DNA from: Patescibacteria group bacterium
GTDB taxonomy: Bacteria > Patescibacteriota > Patescibacteriia > JAXHNJ01
Direction of reading: 5' to 3'
DNA length: 64,000 nt
Assembly: GCA_043812155.1 (NCBI GenBank)
Contig: JBDRMK010000017.1
Coordinates: 13,824-77,823, forward strand
Positions 4,165 through 62,813 of this stretch are shown here, in pieces. Numbering within the stretch: the stretch's first letter is position 1; the number at the start of each line of letters is the position of its first letter. A model generated the notes under the pieces. It was not told where the DNA came from, ran no database searches, and was given only the letters and a program-made list of their open reading frames with translations. Made by a program: the position numbers and the translations under genes.

Positions 4165-6205
4165 TGTGGGCGGAGACCGGCGAGTAATTGGAAAATTCCA
4201 TATTATAGGAAGCGCGGCCCTGGCTCATGGAACGCAATGAAGTGGCATAGCCGAACATGGTCGCCAAGGGCACGTCCGCGTCAATTATTTTCGAGTTGCC
4301 GCGGTCACGCATGTTCTTTATATGGGCTCTTTTGGAATTCAAGTCGCCGATGATGTCTCCCATGAATTTTTCCGGGGTGACCACTTCCACTTTCATGATC
4401 GGCTCAAGCAATATAGGCTTGGCTTTTTTGGCGGCCGCCTGCAAGGCCATGGACCCGGCGATCTTAAAAGCGGCTTCCGAAGAATCAACTTCATGATAAG
4501 TGCCGTCAAATACCGTCACCTTAATATCAACCATGGGGTAGCCGGCCAAGACGCCGTTATCCAGGGCTTCCTTGACCCCTTTTTGGATCGGCAGGATGTA
4601 TTCCTTGGGAATGGTGCCGCCTTTTACCTCATCCACGAATTCAAAGCCTTTGTTGCCTTTCTGCTTTTCCACCCGCAAAAAGCAATGGCCGTATTGGCCG
4701 CGGCCGCCGGATTGCTTGATATATTTGCCTTCCGCCTCCGCCGTCTGAGTGATCGTTTCCTTGTAGGCGACCTGCGGCTGGCCGACATTGGCCTCCACCT
4801 TGAATTCCCGCTTCATCCGGTCCACCAGGATTTCCAAATGCAGCTCGCCCATGCCGGAAATGATCGTCTGGTTGATCTCTTCGTCTGACTTAACCTTAAA
4901 AGTCGGGTCTTCCTGCATCAGCTTAGCCAAGGCAAAACCCATTTTTTCCTGGTCCGCCTTAGTCTTCGGCTCAATAGCCACGGAAATGACCGGTTCGGGG
5001 AAAACGATATTTTCCAAAGTAATGGGGTTATTTTCATCGCATAAAGTATCGCCAGTGGTCGTGTTTTTCAAGCCCACCGCCGCGGCGATATCGCCGGCAT
5101 AAACTTCTTTCACTTCTTCCCGGTGGTTGGCGTGAAGTCTTACGATACGGCCGACTCTTTCTTTTTTATCGGTGCGCGTGTTCAAAACATAGGAACCGGC
5201 GGCCAGCGTGCCGGAATAGACCCGGAAAAAAGATAAAGTGCCGACAAAAGGATCCGTGGCCACTTTAAAAGCCAGGGCGGAAAATGACTCTTCATCGCTT
5301 GTTTTCCGGACGATCTTATTTTCCGTCCGGGGCTCAAAACCTTCGATCGGAGGGACTTCCAAAGGCGAAGGAAGATAATCATTGACCGCGTCCAGCATGA
5401 ACTGCACCCCTTTATTCTTTAAGGCCGAGCCGCAAAGCACGGGAAAAAGCTTATGAGCGATGGTCGCCTGGCGCAGGATTTTTTTCATTTCGGAAACGTC
5501 AGGCTCTTTGCCTTCCAAATATTCATGCAGTAATTTATCATTCTGCTCACAGATCGCTTCCACCATTTGATGGCGGTACTCTTCCACTTTTTCTTTCATC
5601 TCTTCAGGCACCTCGGTATCCTCCCACTCTTTGCCGTCCTCGTCTTTATAGAGCCGAGCTTTTCTTTCAAACAAATCAATGATCCCTTTAAAATTCTCTT
5701 CCGCCCCGATCGGCAGCTGGATGGGCACGGCGTCCTTGCTCAATCTTTCGTGAATGGAATCCAGATCAAAATAAAAATTGGCGCCCATCCGGTCCATCTT
5801 ATTGACAAAACAGATCAGAGGCACTTTGAATTTTTCCGCCTGGTGCCAGACAGTTTCCGATTGGGGCTCCACTCCGGCCACGCCGTCAAAAACCACCACC
5901 CCGCCGTCCAGGACGCGCAAAGAGCGCTGGACCTCGGCCGTAAAATCAATATGACCGGGCGTGTCAATGATATTTATCCGGTGGTCTTTCCAAAAACAGG
6001 TGGTGGCGGCGGAAGTGATGGTAATGCCGCGCTCCTTTTCCTGCTCCATCCAGTCCATTTCCGCTTCGCCGTTGTGCACTTCGCCGATCTTATGCTTTTT
6101 TCCGGTGTAATACAAAATGCGCTCGGAAACCGTGGTTTTTCCGGCGTCAATGTGAGCTATAATCCCAATATTCCTTGTTTTTTCTAATGAATACTCTCTT
6201 GCCAT
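4130..6205 (-). CDS. fusA: Elongation factor G
   Basis: 691 aa with [17 protein letters not shown] and NKMD motifs and a full EF-G domain set. Starts [25 protein letters not shown]. Confidence 0.97.
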
Positions 6206-6220
6206 AATTCAAAATTTCCC

Positions 6221-6310
6221 TTATTTTATTTTACTCATCCTGAGCCGCGTCGAAGGATGAGCGATAATGCCGATATTTCTCGTTTTTTCTAATGAATACT
6301 CTCTGGCCAT
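6221..6310 (-). pseudogene. Diverged duplicate of the fusA 5' end (first 18 codons), truncated
   Basis: Reverse-complement reads ATGGCCAGAGAGTATTCATTAGAAAAAACGAGAAATATCGGCATTATCGCTCAT... = [18 protein letters not shown], then diverges into PSTRLRMSKIK*. It differs from the real fusA start at 7 synonymous third positions and no replacement sites. There is no SD upstream. Confidence 0.5.
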
Positions 6311-6344
6311 AATAAAAAAAGACTTTTGTTAATTATTGATAATA

Positions 6345-9769: not shown

Positions 9770-9844
9770 CGGGGTATGGCCCAGCTAGCTTAGGGCGCAT
9801 GCATGGGGTGCATGAGATCGTGGGTGCGAATCCCACTACCCCGA
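9770..9844 (+). tRNA. tRNA-Pro (anticodon GGG), 75 nt, atypical D-loop
   Basis: Hand-folded: acceptor CGGGGTA/TACCCCG, anticodon stem CATGC/GCATG, loop ATGGGGT (anticodon GGG), T-arm GTGGG-TGCGAAT-CCCAC, discriminator A. The D-loop AGCTAGCTTA lacks the conserved GG. No encoded CCA. Confidence 0.55.
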
Positions 9845-9955: not shown

Positions 9956-11275
9956 ATGAAAAAAACCAAGGTTCTTATCATGGGCGCGGCCGGACGCGAT
10001 TTCCATGATTTTAACACTTATTACCGGGATAACAAAAATTACGAGGTGGTCGCTTTTACCGCCACCCAGATTCCCAATATTGACGGCCGGCTATATCCGG
10101 CGGTTTTGGCAGGAAAACTCTACCCGGCCGGCATTCCTATCCATGCGGAAAACGAATTGACGGAACTAATAAAAAAGCATGACGTGGATGAAGTGTTGCT
10201 TTCTTATTCCGACCAGCCGCACAAGACCGTAATGAATAAGGCTTCCCAGGCCATGGCCGCGGGCGCCGATTTTCGGCTTCTGGGTCCGAAAAAAACCATG
10301 ATCAAGTCTAAGAAACCGATGATCGCCATCTGCGCCGTGCGCACCGGCTGCGGCAAATCCCAGACTTCCCGCAAAGTGGTGGAATATTACAAAAACAAAG
10401 GAGTTAAGGTAGTTGCCATCCGCCACCCTATGCCCTACGGCGACCTGGCCAAACAGGCGGTCCAGCGCTTTGCCACTTATGAAGATATGTATAAACACGA
10501 ATGCACGATTGAAGAACGGGAGGAATACGAGCCATACGTGGAAAAAGGCCTGGTTATCTACGCCGGCGTGGATTACGGCGCGATCTTAAAGGAAGCAGAA
10601 AAAGAAGCCGATGTCATCATCTGGGACGGCGGAAACAACGACACGCCTTTTTATAAACCCGACTTGCACATTACCGTGGCTGATCCGCACCGGGCCGGAA
10701 ATGAAGTCAGCTATTACCCCGGAGAAACAAATTTCCGCATGGCTGATGTCATTGTCATCAATAAAATAGACACGGCTGATCCCGCCAACGTGAAAATCAT
10801 TGAAGAAAATATCAAAAAATTCAATCCGAAAGCAACAGTCATTAAAGCCAATTCTTCTTTCACGGTTGATGACCCGAAAATCATTGAAGGCAAAAGGGTG
10901 TTGGTGGTGGAAGACGGCCCGACTCTGACGCATGGAGAAATGGCCTATGGCGCCGGTTACTTTGCCGCCAAAAAATTCAACGCCAAGGAATTGATTGATC
11001 CTCGGCCGTTTGCCGTCGGCTCCATTAAAAAGACTTTTGAAAAATTCAGCCATCTTTCGGAAATCCTGCCGGCCATGGGTTACAGCCCGGAACAGATGAA
11101 AGAACTGGAAGAAACCATTAACTCCAGTGACGCGGAAGGGGTAGTAGTGGGCACCCCGATTGACCTGGTTAAACTCCTGAAAATAAACAAACCGGCCACC
11201 CGAGTCAACTACTATCTGGATGAAATCGGCCAACCGGATATCAAAGAAATTTTGGATAAAGCCAATCTGATATAG
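9956..11275 (+). CDS. P-loop domain protein, possibly cyclic 2,3-diphosphoglycerate synthetase-like (tentative)
   Basis: About 440 aa from the ATG at 9956 (MKKTKVLIMGAAGRDF...). The listed ORF start at 9803 overlaps tRNA-Pro and is rejected. Internal P-loop-like CAVRTGCGKSQTS. The family assignment is from memory and not verified. Confidence 0.35.
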   Translation: MKKTKVLIMGAAGRDFHDFNTYYRDNKNYEVVAFTATQIPNIDGRLYPAVLAGKLYPAGIPIHAENELTELIKKHDVDEVLLSYSDQPHKTVMNKASQAMAAGADFRLLGPKKTMIKSKKPMIAICAVRTGCGKSQTSRKVVEYYKNKGVKVVAIRHPMPYGDLAKQAVQRFATYEDMYKHECTIEEREEYEPYVEKGLVIYAGVDYGAILKEAEKEADVIIWDGGNNDTPFYKPDLHITVADPHRAGNEVSYYPGETNFRMADVIVINKIDTADPANVKIIEENIKKFNPKATVIKANSSFTVDDPKIIEGKRVLVVEDGPTLTHGEMAYGAGYFAAKKFNAKELIDPRPFAVGSIKKTFEKFSHLSEILPAMGYSPEQMKELEETINSSDAEGVVVGTPIDLVKLLKINKPATRVNYYLDEIGQPDIKEILDKANLI

Positions 11276-11381
11276 TTGTTGAGTTGTTAAGAAGTTGGGA
11301 AGTTAAATAATTTTGTTAAATAAATTTCAAAAAACTGCCTGGAAAAATCCGGGCGGTTTTTGTTTACAAAAAAATCTCTGG

Positions 11382-11408
11382 CCACGCAGGTGACCAGAGA
11401 TAGACGAC
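11382..11408 (-). terminator. Rho-independent terminator for the 11423-11884 gene (a convergent weak terminator for the plus-strand gene is nearby)
   Basis: Minus-strand hairpin CTCTGGTCAC-ctgc-GTGGCCAGAG followed by ATTTTTTTGT. Confidence 0.5.
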
Positions 11409-11422
11409 AGATCGATACTGGG

Positions 11423-11884
11423 TTATCTGATATAGCTTCTCAGATCCTGAAAGACTTCATTCTTTCTCTCGTTGGCCAACGCCTTAGCCATCACTAAGGG
11501 CAGAAAGCCGAGCTTGGCGGCAATCAAGAGAACAATGGCCTCGTTCTCCTCAGGAGTGAAACCTTTCACCACTAGGATGAAGCCTCTAGCCCTCAAGCCG
11601 CCAGCCGTCTCCCTTTCGGTCAAAACCACTTCCTTTTCCAAGTTATTGAACAAGAGAATTCCTTCCGTGTTCCACAGGCTCTTGATATCGGTAAACTCCC
11701 GTCCGTTGACCGAGCCGATGGGAAGGAGAAGTATGGCCGCTTCTTCCCGAGTCGATCCCTTTTCTTCGTTCGACGCGATAAGAAGATAACCTCTTGAGGA
11801 AAAACGGTGATCCAGGTGACCGGCCAAAAGGCAGGCGGTCTTGAGAATTTCTTCCACTCTCTCGGCAATGATAAAGGACTCCAT
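11423..11884 (-). CDS. Hypothetical protein
   Basis: Start chosen at MESFIIAERVEEIL, which has the SD GGAGGG 7 nt upstream. No family recognised. Confidence 0.4.
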   Translation of the reverse strand: MESFIIAERVEEILKTACLLAGHLDHRFSSRGYLLIASNEEKGSTREEAAILLLPIGSVNGREFTDIKSLWNTEGILLFNNLEKEVVLTERETAGGLRARGFILVVKGFTPEENEAIVLLIAAKLGFLPLVMAKALANERKNEVFQDLRSYIR

Positions 11885-26788: not shown

Positions 26789-26890
26789 AGCGTTATTATA
26801 CCATATTTTGCCGATATAAAAAAGCGGCCTGGCAGACTAAGTATTTTAGCGCTACTGCCTTTTCAAACCGGCTTTCTTGTTTTTAAATGT

Positions 26891-26947
26891 GGACGCCACT
26901 AAAGTGGCTATGAAGATAAACTTCCCAGCGAATTCATTCGCGTACGC
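26891..26947 (+). repeat. REP-like palindromic repeat unit (GGACGCCACTnAAGTGGCTATGAAG...CAGCGAATTCATTCGCGTACGC), copy A
   Basis: Two palindromic modules (GCCACT..AGTGGC and GCGAAT..ATTCGC/CGCGTACGCG). Overlaps the 3' end of the transposase gene. Copies recur at 27519-27641, 30272-30330 and 53950-53972. Confidence 0.7.
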
Positions 26948-27473
26948 TTTTGCCAAAATTATTTTTAATAAATTCCTCGTCGGTTATTTGAATTACCGAT
27001 TGAATATAATTATCAATATTTCCCTTACCTATTATTTTTATCAACGAGGAATAACTTGAAAATGGGTATTTTTCTAACTTCTTAAGCGTTTTCACCTCCT
27101 TATGCTTTAAGGGATTTCCCGCGACGTAACCGATAACTTTGCTCAACAAAATATCACTCTCAATTAAATACACGTGGTATTCACCCCAAACTGGTTTTTT
27201 GTTGCCTGTTATTTTATTCAAGCGGTAAGCGCTAACACCATAAATATGTTTTAAAATTTTGGGGATAATCCCGGCATTATTATAAAATGAAACAAAATGA
27301 TAATGATTTGACATTATGCTAAAATTAAAATCTTTTAGTTTATTAATTCCAATCGCGGATTTTATCTGATTAAGTATCAAGTTTTTCTTCAAAAATGTGT
27401 CAAAAAAATGATAGCGATAGGCGGTTGGAACGGTTATAAAATAATATGAATGGTTGACAAAATATCTGGACAT
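26934..27473 (-). mobile_element. IS200/IS605-like HUH (Y1) transposase, REP-associated tyrosine transposase (RAYT) type
   Basis: 179 aa with the HUH motif in SNHYHFV and catalytic Tyr in YVAGNPLKH. Flanked on both sides by REP-like palindromes. Confidence 0.6.
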
Positions 27474-27518
27474 AAATAATCTATTAATACTGATCTAATC
27501 GAATAAATTTTTAATGGC

Positions 27519-27641
27519 GGACGCCACTGAAGTGGCTATGAAGGTAAACTTCTCAGCGAATTCATTCGCGTACGCGTTTTGATTTTCGGACGCCACTGAA
27601 GTGGCTGTGAAAAAATAGGCAGGAAAGTGGCTATGAAAAAA
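27519..27641 (+). repeat. REP-like repeat cluster, copy B (module1-module2-module1'-partial)
   Basis: GGACGCCACTGAAGTGGCTATGAAGGTAAACTTCTCAGCGAATTCATTCGCGTACGCG, then GGACGCCACTGAAGTGGCTGTGAAA and GGAAAGTGGCTATGAAAAAA. Confidence 0.7.
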
Positions 27642-28960: not shown

Positions 28961-30244
28961 TTATATGGCCTGGGAAAGATTATACATCGGCATTAAAACG
29001 GACATGACAATGACCGCTACCGCCACGCCCATGATCACCAGGATCAAAGGCTGGATCAGGCTGACCAGGTTTTCCACCATATTTTCAAGCTCCCGGGCGT
29101 AAAAACCGGAGATCTTGTCCAAGATCAGGTCAAGTTTTCCGGTCTGCTCGCCAATGGCCATCATATGGGGCAGCATGATCGGAATCTCCTTGCTGCGGAT
29201 GAAAACCGAGGCAATGGATTTGCCGGCCTCCACTTCTTTTATTGTCTCCGAGATCAAGTCCTTATAAACGCGGTTGCCGATGATATCGGCCGTAATTTCC
29301 AAAGAACGGGTGAGGGGGACGCCGGAGACCAGAAGCGTGGCCAGGCTGCGGGCGAAACGGACCATGTAAATATTCTGGTAAATGCCGCCGAAGATCGGCA
29401 AGCGCATTTTTAGGCTGTCTATTTTTTTCCGGCCGGCAGGCTGGCGGTTGATGAAATTAAAAACAAACACCGCGATTATTATGACCAAAACCAGCAGCCA
29501 CCATTTGCTCTGCAAAAAGGCGCTTGTTCCCATGACCAGCTTGGTTGACCAAGGGAGCTCCGCTCCGCCTTGCGTTAATACTTCCGTCAGCTTAGGCATG
29601 ACAAAAATCATCATCAGAACTCCCACCGCGGACATGGCGACAATGATAAAAATGGGGTAAATCATCGCGCCCTTCATTTTGCTCACCAGGTCATAATCCT
29701 TTTCCTGCTGATCCGCCAAATAATTCAAAGTCTCGTCCAGTTTGCCGGTGGTTTCGCCAGACTTGACCATGTGAGTAAAAAAATCGGAGAAAACCTGCGG
29801 ATAACGGCCCAGGGTCTGCGACAACCGGGCGCCGCCGTCCACTTCATCCGCCACTTCAGAAAGGATGATCTTAAAATTAATATTCTTTGACTGCTTGACG
29901 AGAATGCGCAATGCCTGGACAATCGGCACGGTGGCGGAGATCAAAACGGCGAGCTGGCGGGAAAACATGACCACTTCTTTCCGCGGCACTCTTTTTAAGA
30001 AGCCGAAAGTCGACTGGAACAAAGTGATTTTTTTTCTTTCAGACAAAGCCAAAAGAACCAGATCGCGTTCTTGGAGCATTTCCTGGGCGACGTTCTCGGT
30101 CGGCGCCTCCACCGCTCCGACCAGGGTATTGCCTTCCCGGTCTTTAGCTTTGTAGTCGAATAAAACCACGCGTTTGTTTATTAATTTATTATATGATGTA
30201 ATTTTTTCGAGATGAGGAGAAAAAAACACGAAGACATCAGACAT
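28961..30244 (-). CDS. pilC: Type IV pilus platform protein PilC (GspF family)
   Basis: 427 aa with two GspF domains and three TM segments. Confidence 0.85.
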   Translation of the reverse strand: MSDVFVFFSPHLEKITSYNKLINKRVVLFDYKAKDREGNTLVGAVEAPTENVAQEMLQERDLVLLALSERKKITLFQSTFGFLKRVPRKEVVMFSRQLAVLISATVPIVQALRILVKQSKNINFKIILSEVADEVDGGARLSQTLGRYPQVFSDFFTHMVKSGETTGKLDETLNYLADQQEKDYDLVSKMKGAMIYPIFIIVAMSAVGVLMMIFVMPKLTEVLTQGGAELPWSTKLVMGTSAFLQSKWWLLVLVIIIAVFVFNFINRQPAGRKKIDSLKMRLPIFGGIYQNIYMVRFARSLATLLVSGVPLTRSLEITADIIGNRVYKDLISETIKEVEAGKSIASVFIRSKEIPIMLPHMMAIGEQTGKLDLILDKISGFYARELENMVENLVSLIQPLILVIMGVAVAVIVMSVLMPMYNLSQAI

Positions 30245-30271
30245 TTAGACATGAAGACAGGAAGACAATTT

Positions 30272-30330
30272 TCCCAGCGAATTTATTCGCGTACGCTTTG
30301 AAGGGCGGACACCATTGAAATGACTATGAA
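30272..30330 (+). repeat. REP-like repeat, copy C (module order module2-module1)
   Basis: CCAGCGAATTTATTCGCGTACGC...GCGGACACCATTGAAATGACTATGAA between pilC and the pilT-like gene. Confidence 0.6.
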
Positions 30331-50651: not shown

Positions 50652-50745
50652 GGAGAGGTGGCCGAGTGGCTGAAGGCGGCAGGTTGCTAACCTGTTATGC
50701 GGGTTTAAATCCGTATCGCGAGTTCGAATCTCGCCCTCTCCGCCA
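50652..50745 (+). tRNA. tRNA-Ser (anticodon GCT), with encoded CCA
   Basis: Acceptor GGAGAGG/CCTCTCC, anticodon arm GCAGG-TTGCTAA-CCTGT, long variable arm, T-arm GCGAGTTCGAATCTCGC. Confidence 0.85.
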
Positions 50746-51236: not shown

Positions 51237-51326
51237 GGTGGGATGGCTGAGTGGCTGAAGGCGCTGGTCTTGAAAACCAGAGTCGCTGCAAGGCGACCGC
51301 AGGTTCAAATCCTGCTCCCACCGCCA
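51237..51326 (+). tRNA. tRNA-Ser (anticodon TGA), with encoded CCA
   Basis: Acceptor GGTGGGA/TCCCACC, anticodon arm CTGGT-CTTGAAA-ACCAG, long variable arm GTCGCTGCAAGGCGAC, T-arm GCAGGTTCAAATCCTGC. Confidence 0.85.
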
Positions 51327-51974: not shown

Positions 51975-52046
51975 GCCCTCGTCGTTCAACGGATAGGACG
52001 CAGGATTGCGGATCCTGCAATAGAGGTTCGATTCCCCTCGAGGGCA
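51975..52046 (+). tRNA. tRNA-Arg with unusual anticodon GCG (one A-C mismatch in the T-stem)
   Basis: Acceptor GCCCTCG/CGAGGGC, D-arm GTTC-AACGGATA-GGAC, anticodon arm CAGGA-TTGCGGA-TCCTG, T-arm AGAGG-TTCGATT-CCCCT, discriminator A. Confidence 0.55.
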
Positions 52047-53829: not shown

Positions 53830-53949
53830 GACGTCGCGATTGTCCTTAAAGCCATAGCACTGAATAACGCGTCAAGCAGTAGAAAGGGTGCCCCAACAGT
53901 GGCGGCACCCTCTTTTTTTATTCATTTTTAAATTACACTTTCTAATTTT

Positions 53950-53972
53950 CCTAGCCACTTCAGTGGCGTAAG
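53950..53972 (-). repeat. REP-like module 1 copy (reverse orientation)
   Basis: The reverse complement reads ACGCCACTGAAGTGGCTAGG, matching the GGACGCCACTGAAGTGGCTATGAAG family. Confidence 0.55.
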
Positions 53973-54081
53973 CCAGGGAAAACTAACCCGACTGAAGTCG
54001 GTTTGAAGGTTTGAACCGGGACTAGGCGGATTTAGGAATCCGCCCTTCTCCCAAAAATAAGATATGTGCTAAAATTAAAGC

Positions 54082-58381: not shown

Positions 58382-59596
58382 TTATAGGCTGGGAGTGTTA
58401 TAAACGCCCGGCGGGCAAGGAGTGGAAATACGTATCGCCTCAAAATGCCACCACTCCCCGCAATAGCGATAAAAACCCGCTTTCTGCATGACTTTCTGTA
58501 AAATAGTCTGGGGACCGTAGTCCGGACTGCTCATTGGGGCATTGTTTATCGTGGATAATTTTGTGCATGATGAATCATCATTACCAATTTTATAACATAA
58601 GTCTACGGCCAGACCGCTGACATGCGGCGATTCACAGCTAGGTTTGGCCGCCGGGCTGCAATTACCGATCTTTTTACATTCTTCTGAACAGCCTAAGCCC
58701 TTGTATTGCTCATAACAATCATAAAGTTTTTGCTGTAATTCCAGGGGGCGCCAAGCGCTCATGACCACTATCTTCATGTTTTGTTTTATCAATTCCTTGG
58801 CGGCTTTATCCAGCATAGGAATGACTTGGCTGCGGATTTGGCAGTCACCAGAACATCTACTGCTAATTTCAATGTAATCTTTATTGATATAATCACTTAT
58901 TTTAACCATCTCGCTGTCGGTGGGACATTGACTGATAGATATCGCTTCTTTTTCTAATAATTCCCGGGGGATGATATTCAGCGAAATAGTGCTCCATTTA
59001 ACCAAACCGGGGTTTATGGCGTAAAGCAGAACATAGGCGGTTAAAGTCAGTACCAAGCCGATTAAGGCCCCGTTCATGGTGGATTTGGCTTTTTCAATCC
59101 GGCTGGCATTGCCCGAGGCGGTGACCCATTGAAAACCGGAAAAAAGGATCATCACAGTGGCCAAAATGCCGGCCGCGGCGGCGAAATAACGGTAAAAAGC
59201 GGATATATATTCTCCAATAGTGTTGCCGGTCACTTCTTTTGCCCCTTCAAAACCCGGTAAAGGCTGCTGAAGAGTAATTTTGCCAACACCCAGTGTCTCC
59301 GCCGCCGGCTGACCTTTCGCAATACAAAAAATCTGTGATTTAACCGGGTCAGACTGCAAACAACAATAAGAGGCGGCGCAATCGCAGACAATTTTTTCGG
59401 TATATTTATCGCCGCAAAGATTATTGACGCAAGAAACAGGGTAATAATCCATAGTTGGAGGATCACAAGCCTTTAAAACCCCGTAATCCGGATCAATGAT
59501 GACTTCCTGGGCATGAATTGGCGGTGGAAATAAAAATACTGCCAATCCTAAAACTAAGAGAAAAAAGAAAATATCTATTTTTATTGTCTTACGCAT
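58382..59596 (-). CDS. Mosaic envelope protein: signal peptide, Cys-rich domain, conserved 2-TM hairpin core, and C-terminal M15 (VanY/LAS-type) D,D-peptidase-like domain
   Basis: The C-terminal region has SPHVSGLAVDL (SxHxxGxAxD) and EWWHFE (ExxH), LAS metallopeptidase signatures. The central block IGEYISAFYRYFAAAAGILATVMILFSGFQWVTASGNASRIEKAKSTMNGALIGLVLTLTAY is shared with the 61485-62813 ORF. Confidence 0.55.
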   Translation of the reverse strand: MRKTIKIDIFFFLLVLGLAVFLFPPPIHAQEVIIDPDYGVLKACDPPTMDYYPVSCVNNLCGDKYTEKIVCDCAASYCCLQSDPVKSQIFCIAKGQPAAETLGVGKITLQQPLPGFEGAKEVTGNTIGEYISAFYRYFAAAAGILATVMILFSGFQWVTASGNASRIEKAKSTMNGALIGLVLTLTAYVLLYAINPGLVKWSTISLNIIPRELLEKEAISISQCPTDSEMVKISDYINKDYIEISSRCSGDCQIRSQVIPMLDKAAKELIKQNMKIVVMSAWRPLELQQKLYDCYEQYKGLGCSEECKKIGNCSPAAKPSCESPHVSGLAVDLCYKIGNDDSSCTKLSTINNAPMSSPDYGPQTILQKVMQKAGFYRYCGEWWHFEAIRISTPCPPGVYNTPSL

Positions 59597-61484: not shown

Positions 61485-62813
61485 TTATTGAAAATTTACC
61501 ATTGTTAAATCCAAAGGCACGCAACATTTATTACTGCAGGAGGCTTGTCCAGTTTTATAATTCCCAGGCATGTTATTAAAACCAGTGCTCAAACCTAAAA
61601 TAGCGTCATTACAGCTCACTTCTTCATAATTAAATTTTGGGATTAAATTACAGGCCACCAACGAACAGACAATGTCGCTTTTACTGATAGAGGCGCAGCA
61701 AACCGCATCTAAACCAAAACCAACCCGGTTAGTGTCATTGCAGGGAAAAGTCATTTTTACGATTTTGCCGGTATAAGGCACGTCGGATTCAATTTCCTTG
61801 GGTTCCCCTTTATCCCAGCAAGCGGTTTCCGAATCGTTATTGGAGCCGCCGTACTGGCAAGAAATTCTTAGTTTCGTACTACTGCCGCAGGTTTTCAAAA
61901 TATTCGGATCCATCAAATAGCCAAAGTAACATTTATCCGGATAACCAATGGTTGGCATCCAGGACGTCGCGATCATTTTTAATTTAGTCGTTCGGTCAAT
62001 CTGCCGGCAAATATAGGAAGGGTAGCCACCAGCCTTACTAAAGACATCGTCAATCTGCTGACATTTGCCCGGCTCCGTGTTCTCGCAAAGCTCTTTCGCG
62101 TTTTGACAGTTAAAGGTGTCATTGTCGAAATTCGGGCCGCAAACTTCACCCGTTACCGAACAATAATGGCCGAGGCATTCCCCGCTGCCGTCTTTAAATT
62201 GTAAAATTTTCCCGCAATCCAATGCTGGGCTGTCTTTAGTCAGAGTAACGCCGGCTTTTTGATACTCATCATAAATAGCCAGCTTATCCAAAGTGAATTG
62301 CCGGCAAAAAACCGCGGAAAGATATTCCGATTTAACCGGCGTCAGATAAAGGCTGTTAAAACTTACAAGATCCGGATTAATGGTCCTTAAAAGAACATAA
62401 GAAGTAAGGGTTAAAACTAACCCTATTAGCGCGCCGTTCATGGTGGATTTGGCTTTTTCGATCCGGCTGGCGTTGCCCGAGGCCGTGACCCACTGGAAAC
62501 CGGAAAATAATATCATCACCGTCGCTAAAATTCCGGCGGCGCCGGCGAAATATTTGTAAAATTGGGAGATGTATTCACCGATATCATTAACACAGTATTT
62601 CCCCTGGCTTTTATAAGGCTCCGTCTGGCAGGGCTCGGTGAAACCGTAGATAGGAACCTGCAAAGGGATTTCTTTAATAAAGGTTTCGGTCGCGGCCTGA
62701 GCCTTGACTTCCACGGGTTTAAAGAATAATATGGTAATTAAAAAAACGGGAAGAAGAATAACAAATAATTTTTTTTGATACGGCATACAATAAATATGAT
62801 TAAAAAATTTCAC
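61485..62813 (-). CDS. Mosaic envelope protein sharing the 2-TM core with 58382-59596 but carrying a different Cys-rich C-terminal domain
   Basis: 58 of 62 aa are identical in the core block. The DNA is about 85% identical over roughly 150 bp (62399-62585 vs 59032-59221). The flanking domains are unrelated. Confidence 0.55.
   Translation of the reverse strand: MKFFNHIYCMPYQKKLFVILLPVFLITILFFKPVEVKAQAATETFIKEIPLQVPIYGFTEPCQTEPYKSQGKYCVNDIGEYISQFYKYFAGAAGILATVMILFSGFQWVTASGNASRIEKAKSTMNGALIGLVLTLTSYVLLRTINPDLVSFNSLYLTPVKSEYLSAVFCRQFTLDKLAIYDEYQKAGVTLTKDSPALDCGKILQFKDGSGECLGHYCSVTGEVCGPNFDNDTFNCQNAKELCENTEPGKCQQIDDVFSKAGGYPSYICRQIDRTTKLKMIATSWMPTIGYPDKCYFGYLMDPNILKTCGSSTKLRISCQYGGSNNDSETACWDKGEPKEIESDVPYTGKIVKMTFPCNDTNRVGFGLDAVCCASISKSDIVCSLVACNLIPKFNYEEVSCNDAILGLSTGFNNMPGNYKTGQASCSNKCCVPLDLTMVNFQ

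Follow-up and report, generated by a model that had tools for sequence, protein, structure and literature searches.

A 64-kb stretch of DNA from a Patescibacteria group bacterium (assembly GCA_043812155.1, contig JBDRMK010000017.1, positions 13,824 to 77,823; hereafter the window) carries, within a type IV pilus operon, a gene for a HUH/Y1 transposase that is surrounded by short palindromic repeats. The arrangement is most probably a REPtron, namely a gene for a single-stranded DNA endonuclease/transposase of the RAYT class (a tyrosine transposase that is associated with repetitive extragenic palindromes, REPs) sitting within an array in which its cognate REP hairpins alternate, with a few hairpin doublets dispersed between genes. 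This REPtron is non-canonical, in that its hairpins lack the GT[AG]G tag and its host has a small genome, and the gene is better described as lying within an alternating array than between the defined ends of an insertion sequence (IS). The observations behind this reading are an intact catalytic set, a RAYT-like fold, an architecture conserved in about 19 loci, covariation in the hairpins, their extragenic location and the absence of gene and repeats from syntenic sites; moreover, the type of hairpin co-varies with the divergence of the protein.

The gene (26934..27473, minus strand) is intact and encodes a RAYT-like (class 2 TnpA_Y1) protein of 179 amino acids with the motifs SNHYHFV and GYVAGNPLKH, which is full length, since its relatives span 170-185 amino acids. 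Residues H57, H59, Y116, G119 and N120 are invariant in 30 homologs (NHYH and Y-x3-N-P), and H57, H59, Y116 and N120 are candidate catalytic residues as judged from the alignment. The Y---NP motif is the signature of class 2 TnpA_Y1 (RAYT-like) proteins, whereas IS200 transposases have Y-x3-Q (Quentin et al., 2018, PMC6006769). The Pfam model Y1_Tnp is matched slightly over its cut-off (27.9 bits), the NCBIfam model REP_Tyr_transpos (NF047646) over its full length with 54 bits, and the model transpos_IS200 with 14.4 bits against a cut-off of 55; among the aligned relatives the RAYT model matches 30 of 30 (best E-value 3e-18) and the IS200 model four of 30. A search of the Protein Data Bank (PDB) with a sequence profile was too weak to discriminate (0.016 for 2xm3, 0.03 for 4er8), and the fold was compared instead. 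An AlphaFold2 model built from the family alignment (mean predicted local distance difference test score, pLDDT, 93.5) has as its top Foldseek match in the PDB 4er8_A (E 4.8e-8, template modelling (TM) scores 0.61/0.66, root-mean-square deviation 3.2 Å over 153 columns), which is E. coli TnpA_REP with a bound REP hairpin and shares 16% identity over the structural alignment; the ISDra2, IS608 and IS200 transposases come next in the ranking with TM scores of ~0.48. The NCBIfam scores, the Y---NP motif and the match to 4ER8 support the view that the protein is closer to RAYTs than to IS200 TnpA, in agreement with an earlier note on this DNA, which had been made from the sequence and had proposed a RAYT-type HUH transposase. 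The same note had named an adjacent tnpB remnant as a sign of an ordinary IS200/IS605 element; neither tnpB nor a remnant of it lies beside the gene, the adjacent open reading frames (ORFs) being a pilin-like gene and the gene for the prepilin peptidase PilD, and the non-coding flanks measure 145 and 213 nt. The subfamily is small, with 34 clusters (50% identity) at E <= 1e-30 and 227 at E <= 1e-10 in a library of 1.84 billion representatives, and its members are named 'transposase' in the databases, with one JGI record reading 'REP element-mobilizing transposase RayT'. The window holds a single copy of the gene, with a G+C content of 30.7% versus 44-50% in its neighbours, and 33.5% versus 54-67% at third codon positions. 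The host had been described in the earlier note as an AT-rich genome, which does not hold for the window (44.7% G+C), where the transposase gene alone is AT-rich.

The repeats had been described as a bipartite palindrome made of two modules, A and B. In a pattern search of the window both are matched on the plus strand, A with 0-2 mismatches at 26891, 27519 and 27588, and B with 0-1 mismatches at 26926, 27554 and 30275. Neither is matched in the shuffled window, so that the repeats are real; the two modules, however, are one and the same 22-nt unit on opposite strands, consisting of AC, a 5-bp stem, T(A/G)AA, the returning 5-bp stem and T-N-N-GAA. Eight perfect generic units are found in the window versus 0.075 expected from first-order Markov (dinucleotide-based) simulated sequences, and all eight begin with AC and have a T behind the stem, although the search demanded neither. 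Units with the stem GCCAC are termed X and all others Y; in the window, the Y stem is CCGAC near recG and GCGAA elsewhere, namely beside the gene and between pilT and pilC. Each perfect unit belongs to an inverted X-Y pair, and thus to a pair of two species. The pairs beside the gene stand tail-to-tail, 7 nt apart, on both flanks, and those at two dispersed sites stand head-to-head, 16 nt apart.

Palindromic repeats in inverted orientation thus lie on both flanks of the RAYT-like gene (units at 26893-26943 and 27521-27611), as the earlier note had stated, and the order on the coding strand is X' (a fragment), X', Y, X', the gene, Y and X'. Downstream of the gene and in the orientation opposite to it lies the X unit ACGCCAC-TAAA-GTGGC-TATGAA (26893..26914, plus strand; module A), which is tail-to-tail with the Y unit ACGCGAA-TGAA-TTCGC-TGGGAA (26922..26943, minus strand; module B in its minus-strand reading); the latter overlaps the final codons and the stop of the gene. 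Upstream, an X unit at 27521..27542 (plus strand, opposite to the gene and 47 nt upstream of its ATG) is tail-to-tail across 7 nt with a Y unit with the stem GCGAA at 27550..27571 (minus strand), and these two make up a 72-nt direct repeat of 26880-26951 (90% identity) that brackets the gene. They are followed by a third X unit with the tail TGTGAA (27590..27611, plus strand) and by the fragment GGCAGG-AAA-GTGGC-TATGAA (27616..27637, plus strand), which corresponds to the 3' half of a long-form X unit. In the pilT-pilC spacer, where the earlier note had placed one copy of each module (30272-30330), the B copy is intact as a Y unit with the stem GCGAA and the loop TAAA (30271..30292, minus strand), and its head-to-head X partner 16 nt away, ACACCAT-TGAA-ATGAC-TATGAA (30309..30330, plus strand), is degenerate, with 4/22 mismatches and a broken stem. 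The copy noticed upstream of recG is an X unit (53948..53969, minus strand), but it belongs to a doublet whose partner had been overlooked, the second-species Y unit ACCCGAC-TGAA-GTCGG-TTTGAA (53986..54007, plus strand), head-to-head with it at 16 nt; its stem CCGAC is frequent among the Y units of other genomes. At 54025-54044, 17 nt past this doublet, there is a strong 8-bp hairpin, GGCGGATT-TAGG-AATCCGCC, and similar CCGCC/GGCGG hairpins occur beside or inside X and Y units elsewhere (loci L016, L094 and L117). All repeat sites of the window are intergenic, and Pfam confirms PilD, pilins, PilC, PilT, PilB and RecG around them, which bears out their assignment to intergenic spacers of the pilus genes and to the vicinity of recG. 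As single-stranded DNA the doublets can form either two small hairpins or one long imperfect hairpin; those flanking the gene and that near recG fold better than shuffled sequences (z -2.1 to -4.1), which the decayed doublet of the pilT-pilC spacer does not (z -1.1 and +0.2).

The hairpin family extends beyond the window. An exact scan for AGCCACTTYAGTGGCGT across one genome per species (596 Gb, in which ~139 chance matches are expected) returned at least 118 stretches; only genomes with multiple matches were used, and counts in relatives are lower bounds. Singleton matches in Streptomyces and similar genomes are probably due to chance. Among the matches listed, several metagenome-assembled genomes (MAGs) have many on separate contigs, namely MAGs of Patescibacteria (SCSL01, CALRHL01, CALRGA01, JBBIUS01, JAHIVO01, LCPQ01 and others), of Zixibacteria (CAIVRH01, JAZDLB01, MEWM01 and JALHUP01), one of Ignavibacteria and two labelled Gammaproteobacteria. 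The sequence contexts in 'uncultured Gammaproteobacteria bacterium binchicken_co203_597' (CAYYFM01, L003-L116) are near-identical to those on Candidatus Uhrbacteria contigs (CALRHL01), for example L045 versus L014 and L007 versus L080, and the taxonomic label of the former is probably wrong. Hence the repeat is not confined to the window, a possibility that the earlier note had raised against its own proposal, but recurs many times in more than 20 other assemblies. Almost all of the MAGs with multiple matches carry a Y hairpin of the same form, inverted and a few to ~30 nt from X, and between genomes the foot stems of Y vary by compensatory changes (GGGAC/GTCCC, GGGGC/GCCCC, CCGAC/GTCGG, CTGAC/GTCAG and GCGAC/GTCGC). 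When a structure-blind pattern, AC N5 T[AGT]AA N5 TNNGAA, was applied to 963 kb of loci, 228 of the 259 matches had perfect 5-bp stems, which fall into ~8 stem species. Conversely, a scan for the hairpin core alone recovered the flanks, with AC in 99% of X and ~80% of Y units, T in 99% and 81%, respectively, and GAA in 84-89%, and detected no conservation past the 22-nt unit.

Pairing in inverted orientation, which had been suggested as a check for REPINs (REP doublets forming hairpins), is the rule in the window and also in the wider loci, where inverted X-Y heteropairs make up ~100 of the 109 pairs of neighbouring units, with 61 standing head-to-head (spacers of 3-30 nt) and 39 tail-to-tail (0-30 nt). 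Two REP species therefore alternate in opposite orientation, an organisation like that of bacterial interspersed mosaic elements (BIMEs). With a crude ORF mask, 66% of 309 units fall within the 12.7% of the DNA that lies outside ORFs, a 5-fold enrichment, and the units counted on separate contigs amount to at least 23 X and 22 Y in CAYYFM01 and at least 17 X and 24 Y in SCSL01. Rfam has no family for the units or for their long forms. Two other classes of repeat were considered and discarded, a CRISPR array for lack of regular spacing and integron attC sites for lack of the R/L box pattern.

The association of gene and hairpins was also approached from the protein, by retrieving contigs that encode homologs irrespective of repeats, a test independent of the hairpin-first search. 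The combination of gene and X/Y units recurs around homologs of 34-60% identity in ~19 loci from Patescibacteria and Zixibacteria. X and Y are present on both sides of the gene in every locus whose protein is at least 53% identical to that of the window, and 8/8 metagenome loci selected by protein at this level carry units; at 34-41% identity, six loci have X and Y on both sides (5/17 metagenome loci and L060). Within 500 nt of the gene, in 20 loci, X is oriented opposite to the gene in 49/49 cases and Y lies on the same strand in 53/56, so that 102/105 units obey one orientation rule. One homolog of 57% identity is located on a 182-kb Zixibacteria contig with genes typical of lineages outside the candidate phyla radiation (CPR), and the spread across phyla is therefore no binning artefact. 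Most homologs at 33-41% identity are without AC...GAA units and are flanked by inverted pairs of other hairpins, in which the TAAA/TTTA loop is retained and stems and tags are different, the stems being CCAGC/CCGCC, CCTGC/CCCAC and GGGGAC/GCGGAC or the long TCGAACAC/CTTCGAGAC, and homologs of at least 53% identity retain X (GCCAC) and have a lineage-specific Y. Co-evolution of every protein lineage with a REP family of its own, which has been described for known RAYTs (Quentin et al., 2018, PMC6006769), would be expected to give such a pattern.

Related copies, at least 12 in number, have a GC-rich hairpin of 17-76 nt placed exactly between the loop T and AAA, such that foot and flanks are unchanged and the terminal loop becomes an internal one. 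Such long forms are found in L001 (~2899-2970), L124 (minus strand, from 10557), L029, L038, L019 and L008, and further in L050, L022, L076, L014, L028 and L129; L001 and L124 contain full-length versions of the window fragment at 27616-27637. The inserts are of different types, and one type is shared by X and Y of the same genome. At one orthologous site, L045 has the short form and L014 the long one. Either insertions target the loop of the hairpin, or the short units arose from long ones by deletion. The position of the inserts lends support to a role of the unpaired T/AAA in recognition. A hammerhead-like ribozyme was rejected as an identity for the long forms, which have no CUGAUGA box and no Rfam match. 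In L029, an Uhrbacteria locus, Rfam reports a DUF3800-IX small RNA at 4378-4443 (55 bits), which is unrelated to the repeats.

The closest available pilus operons, with PilC proteins 83%, 80% and 78% identical and the same gene order, have neither the gene nor the units, which identifies both as insertions. In two of these relatives, 99 or 176 nt separate the pilin-like gene from pilD, versus ~900 nt in the window, and the pilT-pilC spacer is 8-158 nt in relatives free of units versus 225 nt in the window. The latter value depends on the start of PilC, whose ORF (28961-30244, minus strand) gives 427 amino acids from the first ATG and has more than 100 homologs of 402-403 amino acids that cover 94% of it; by this comparison the true start probably lies near 30169, from which the spacer of 225 nt follows. 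A TGnTATAAT-like extended -10 element upstream of pilD (26797-26812, minus strand) is also present in the insertion-free locus L125 (~11115-11130), which places the REPtron upstream of the apparent pilD promoter, and pilD may thus keep a promoter of its own downstream of the REPtron. In another relative (GCA_034520665.1, locus L127) the same spacer holds a 1345-nt gene-free gap (10495-11839) packed with other palindromes, such as GCGCCGGATAAATCCGGCGCC and GGTGGAGATC..ATCTCCAC, and with a long direct repeat. This spacer may therefore be permissive for the accumulation of repeats, or a hotspot of it.

The assembly GCA_034520665.1 also has two genes for a 60%-identical homolog, whose gene contexts are not the same; 3/537 nt distinguish the two copies (99.4% identity), and both are embedded in arrays of X and Y (GCGAC) units. 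Furthermore, in the six genomes checked (the window, L001, L060, L121, L123 and L124) the gene falls short of its locus in G+C content by 8-17 points. The low G+C content, the cross-phylum spread and the near-identical duplicate, together with the unit-free syntenic operons, point to a recent movement of the gene-plus-repeat unit. Domesticated RAYTs are single-copy, vertically inherited genes with a housekeeping-like distribution (Bertels et al., 2017). The observations on the present family indicate a mobility that resembles such RAYTs less and is more IS-like.

An alternative reading, which is unlikely on balance, takes the element for an ordinary autonomous IS200-type IS consisting of tnpA only, with the flanking hairpins as its ends and the doublets as scars or as derivatives akin to miniature inverted-repeat transposable elements (MITEs) or palindrome-associated transposable elements (PATEs), without a role at the level of the host. 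The 72-nt direct repeat around the gene would suit such an IS, as would the two 99.4%-identical copies in one relative, the empty syntenic site and the low G+C content of the gene. In the window, moreover, and in eight others of the 20 loci (two Y'/Y cases counted), the gene has X' as its nearest upstream unit and Y as its nearest downstream one, and deletion of the gene would leave a head-to-head X'-Y doublet. However, a strict bracket of X' upstream and Y downstream fails as an IS boundary, since it is true in only 7-9/20 loci, and the flanks are alternating arrays of variable length without defined left and right ends. The protein argues against an IS200 identity as well, with Y---NP instead of Y---Q, 14 bits against a cut-off of 55 and a fold nearer to TnpA_REP, and so do the lack of tnpB and the single gene copy in the window. 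Finally, the X hairpin stays with proteins down to ~35% identity, which implies a long-lived association. The difference between this alternative and the REPtron lies mainly in selfish versus domesticated status rather than in mechanism.

Far less probable is that the hairpins act at the RNA level, as terminators, attenuators or mRNA stabilisers of the pilus operon, with the transposase gene adjoining by coincidence. In favour of it, the units lie between genes and are transcribed together with the pilus operon on the minus strand, the stem covariation indicates selection for pairing, and the doublets fold better than shuffles with the z-scores given above. The suggestion of the earlier note that the repeats serve as terminators or mRNA stabilisers finds no backing, however, as the stems have just 5 bp and no T tract follows them, and as the sole call of a terminator scan (54001-53988) is on the strand opposite to recG, with none among the units co-oriented with flanking genes. 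The units also occur in both orientations relative to the flanking genes, the orthologous pilus operons work without them and Rfam knows no such family, and the strict orientation with respect to a RAYT-like gene, in unrelated contexts and across phyla, would be left unexplained. That the repeats represent chance similarity or an assembly artefact can be dismissed, since the MAG origin of the window and the ~139 chance occurrences expected for the 17-mer pattern in 596 Gb stand against the lack of matches in shuffles of the window and an architecture that recurs in independent assemblies (NCBI, JGI and Logan).

Several observations nevertheless count against the REPtron interpretation. The 54 bits obtained with NF047646 are below its equivalog cut-off of 80, and the canonical 5' GT[AG]G tag of REPs was absent in the hairpin-core scan, in which the conserved flanks are 5' AC and 3' T-N-N-GAA. 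Outside the flanks of the gene there are only two dispersed sites in 64 kb (30271-30330 and 53948-54007), and three 20-kb loci of relatives showed no units away from the gene, so that copy numbers may be low in some hosts. A scan of JGI metagenomes for the window-specific Y species (GCGTACGCGAATRAATTCGCTGRGAA) gave 0 matches. As to the missing tag, REPs without GTAG have been accepted for TnpA_Y1 subclasses 2.6 and 3, which sets a precedent (Quentin et al., 2018, PMC6006769).

The closest known counterpart of the REPtron in the window is that of E. coli, with TnpA_REP (RAYT/YafM, PDB 4ER8) and the Y and Z REPs in BIMEs. The two have in common an HUH/Y1 protein, the Y---NP motif and the fold, as well as inverted REP pairs that flank the gene, two species that alternate in opposite orientation and dispersed intergenic copies. 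By contrast, the window protein has only the 16% structural identity and the sub-cut-off NCBIfam score mentioned above, the E. coli REPs have a long stem and a 5' GTAG tag where a 5-bp stem, a TRAA loop and AC and T-NN-GAA flanks are seen here, and the hosts are Proteobacteria in one case and Patescibacteria and Zixibacteria in the other, where the gene bears signs of recent mobility. The REPIN-RAYT systems of Pseudomonas and Enterobacteria (described by Bertels and Rainey; RAYT Groups 2 and 3) are alike in their inverted doublets with short spacers, which can form a longer hairpin, and in the flanking of the RAYT gene; unlike in those systems, the two arms belong here to different species, with three stem base pairs differing, the copies seen number a few to a few tens rather than hundreds, and the cross-phylum occurrence, the low G+C content of the gene and the near-identical duplicate in one genome depart from the pattern of single-copy, vertically inherited genes. 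TnpA_Y1 subclasses 2.6 and 3 share with the window protein the class-2-like character, the size of ~180 amino acids and recurring non-GTAG 'atypical secondary structures' (Quentin et al., 2018, PMC6006769). They occur in Bacteroidetes (NH[LIV]H, YIH[QN]NP) or in Planctomycetes and Acidobacteria (Y---EQ), in contrast to the NHYH, W[GD]E and YV[VA]GNP motifs of the present family, a distinction that is drawn from published descriptions. Lastly, the IS200/IS605 elements (TnpA of IS608 and ISDra2) and PATEs have the catalytic fold, small hairpins beside the gene and an unpaired T in or above the stem as the likely recognition feature, and their single-strand 'peel and paste' transposition serves as a model. 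They differ in the Y---Q motif, in tnpB, which is missing here, in the 14 bits obtained with the IS200 model and in having one left and one right end instead of inverted heteropairs and arrays.

By analogy with E. coli TnpA_REP and with TnpA of IS608 and ISDra2, the REPtron protein would bind the hairpins in single-stranded DNA and would read the 5-bp foot together with the unpaired T/AAA and with AC and T-NN-GAA on either side. Tyr116 would then cleave next to the conserved flanks, after which the strand would be rejoined, so that X-Y doublets would be excised and copied to new intergenic sites, occasionally along with the whole gene-plus-repeat unit. For TnpA_REP (4ER8), the analogy refers to work by Ton-Hoang and by Messing, both from 2012, as cited in later literature.

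Apart from the REPtron, the window contains a 242-nt direct repeat (58978-59219 and 62342-62583; 74% identity, 3.4 kb apart), which probably reflects paralogous genes, and a 62-nt direct repeat in an intergenic or leader region (6153-6214 and 6258-6319; 87% identity, 105 nt apart). Rfam matches nothing in the window except four tRNA genes (9770-9844, 50652-50742, 51237-51323 and 51975-52046), three of which are clustered.

Nearly all REP-RAYT systems characterised to date come from Proteobacteria, with some from Cyanobacteria and Bacteroidetes, and the type IV pilus is central to the episymbiotic lifestyle and DNA uptake of candidate-phyla bacteria. Genes for TnpA_Y1 proteins that do not belong to IS elements were reported to be enriched in large genomes and absent from Mollicutes, in a data set outside which the candidate phyla lie (Quentin et al., 2018, PMC6006769). 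A full-text literature search, which included few subscription journals, found no link between RAYTs, REPINs or REPs and candidate-phyla bacteria, and this is absence of evidence only. The REPtron in the window overturns nothing; it widens the range of a known mechanism by a new lineage and a new REP design, such that the REP-RAYT association reaches ultra-small genomes with a hairpin type devoid of GTAG, and it adds an element whose presence within a type IV pilus operon varies between close relatives. Hairpin recognition by RAYTs can also be approached by comparison through the X/Y pair, in which one arm stays the same across phyla and its partner covaries. A bolder and rather speculative possibility is that the family represents a still-mobile REPtron lineage, intermediate between selfish IS200 elements and domesticated RAYTs, which spreads across phyla (Patescibacteria, Zixibacteria and probably Ignavibacteria) and survives in streamlined genomes of ~1 Mb. 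If this were true, the recognition code would be unusually legible, with X (GCCAC) near-invariant across phyla and Y drifting by compensatory changes, and with a fixed unpaired T/AAA 5 bp above the foot that tolerates or attracts extra GC-rich hairpins. The family would then be a natural system for studying how RAYTs read DNA, and a source of structural variation in the pilus and competence operons of CPR bacteria.

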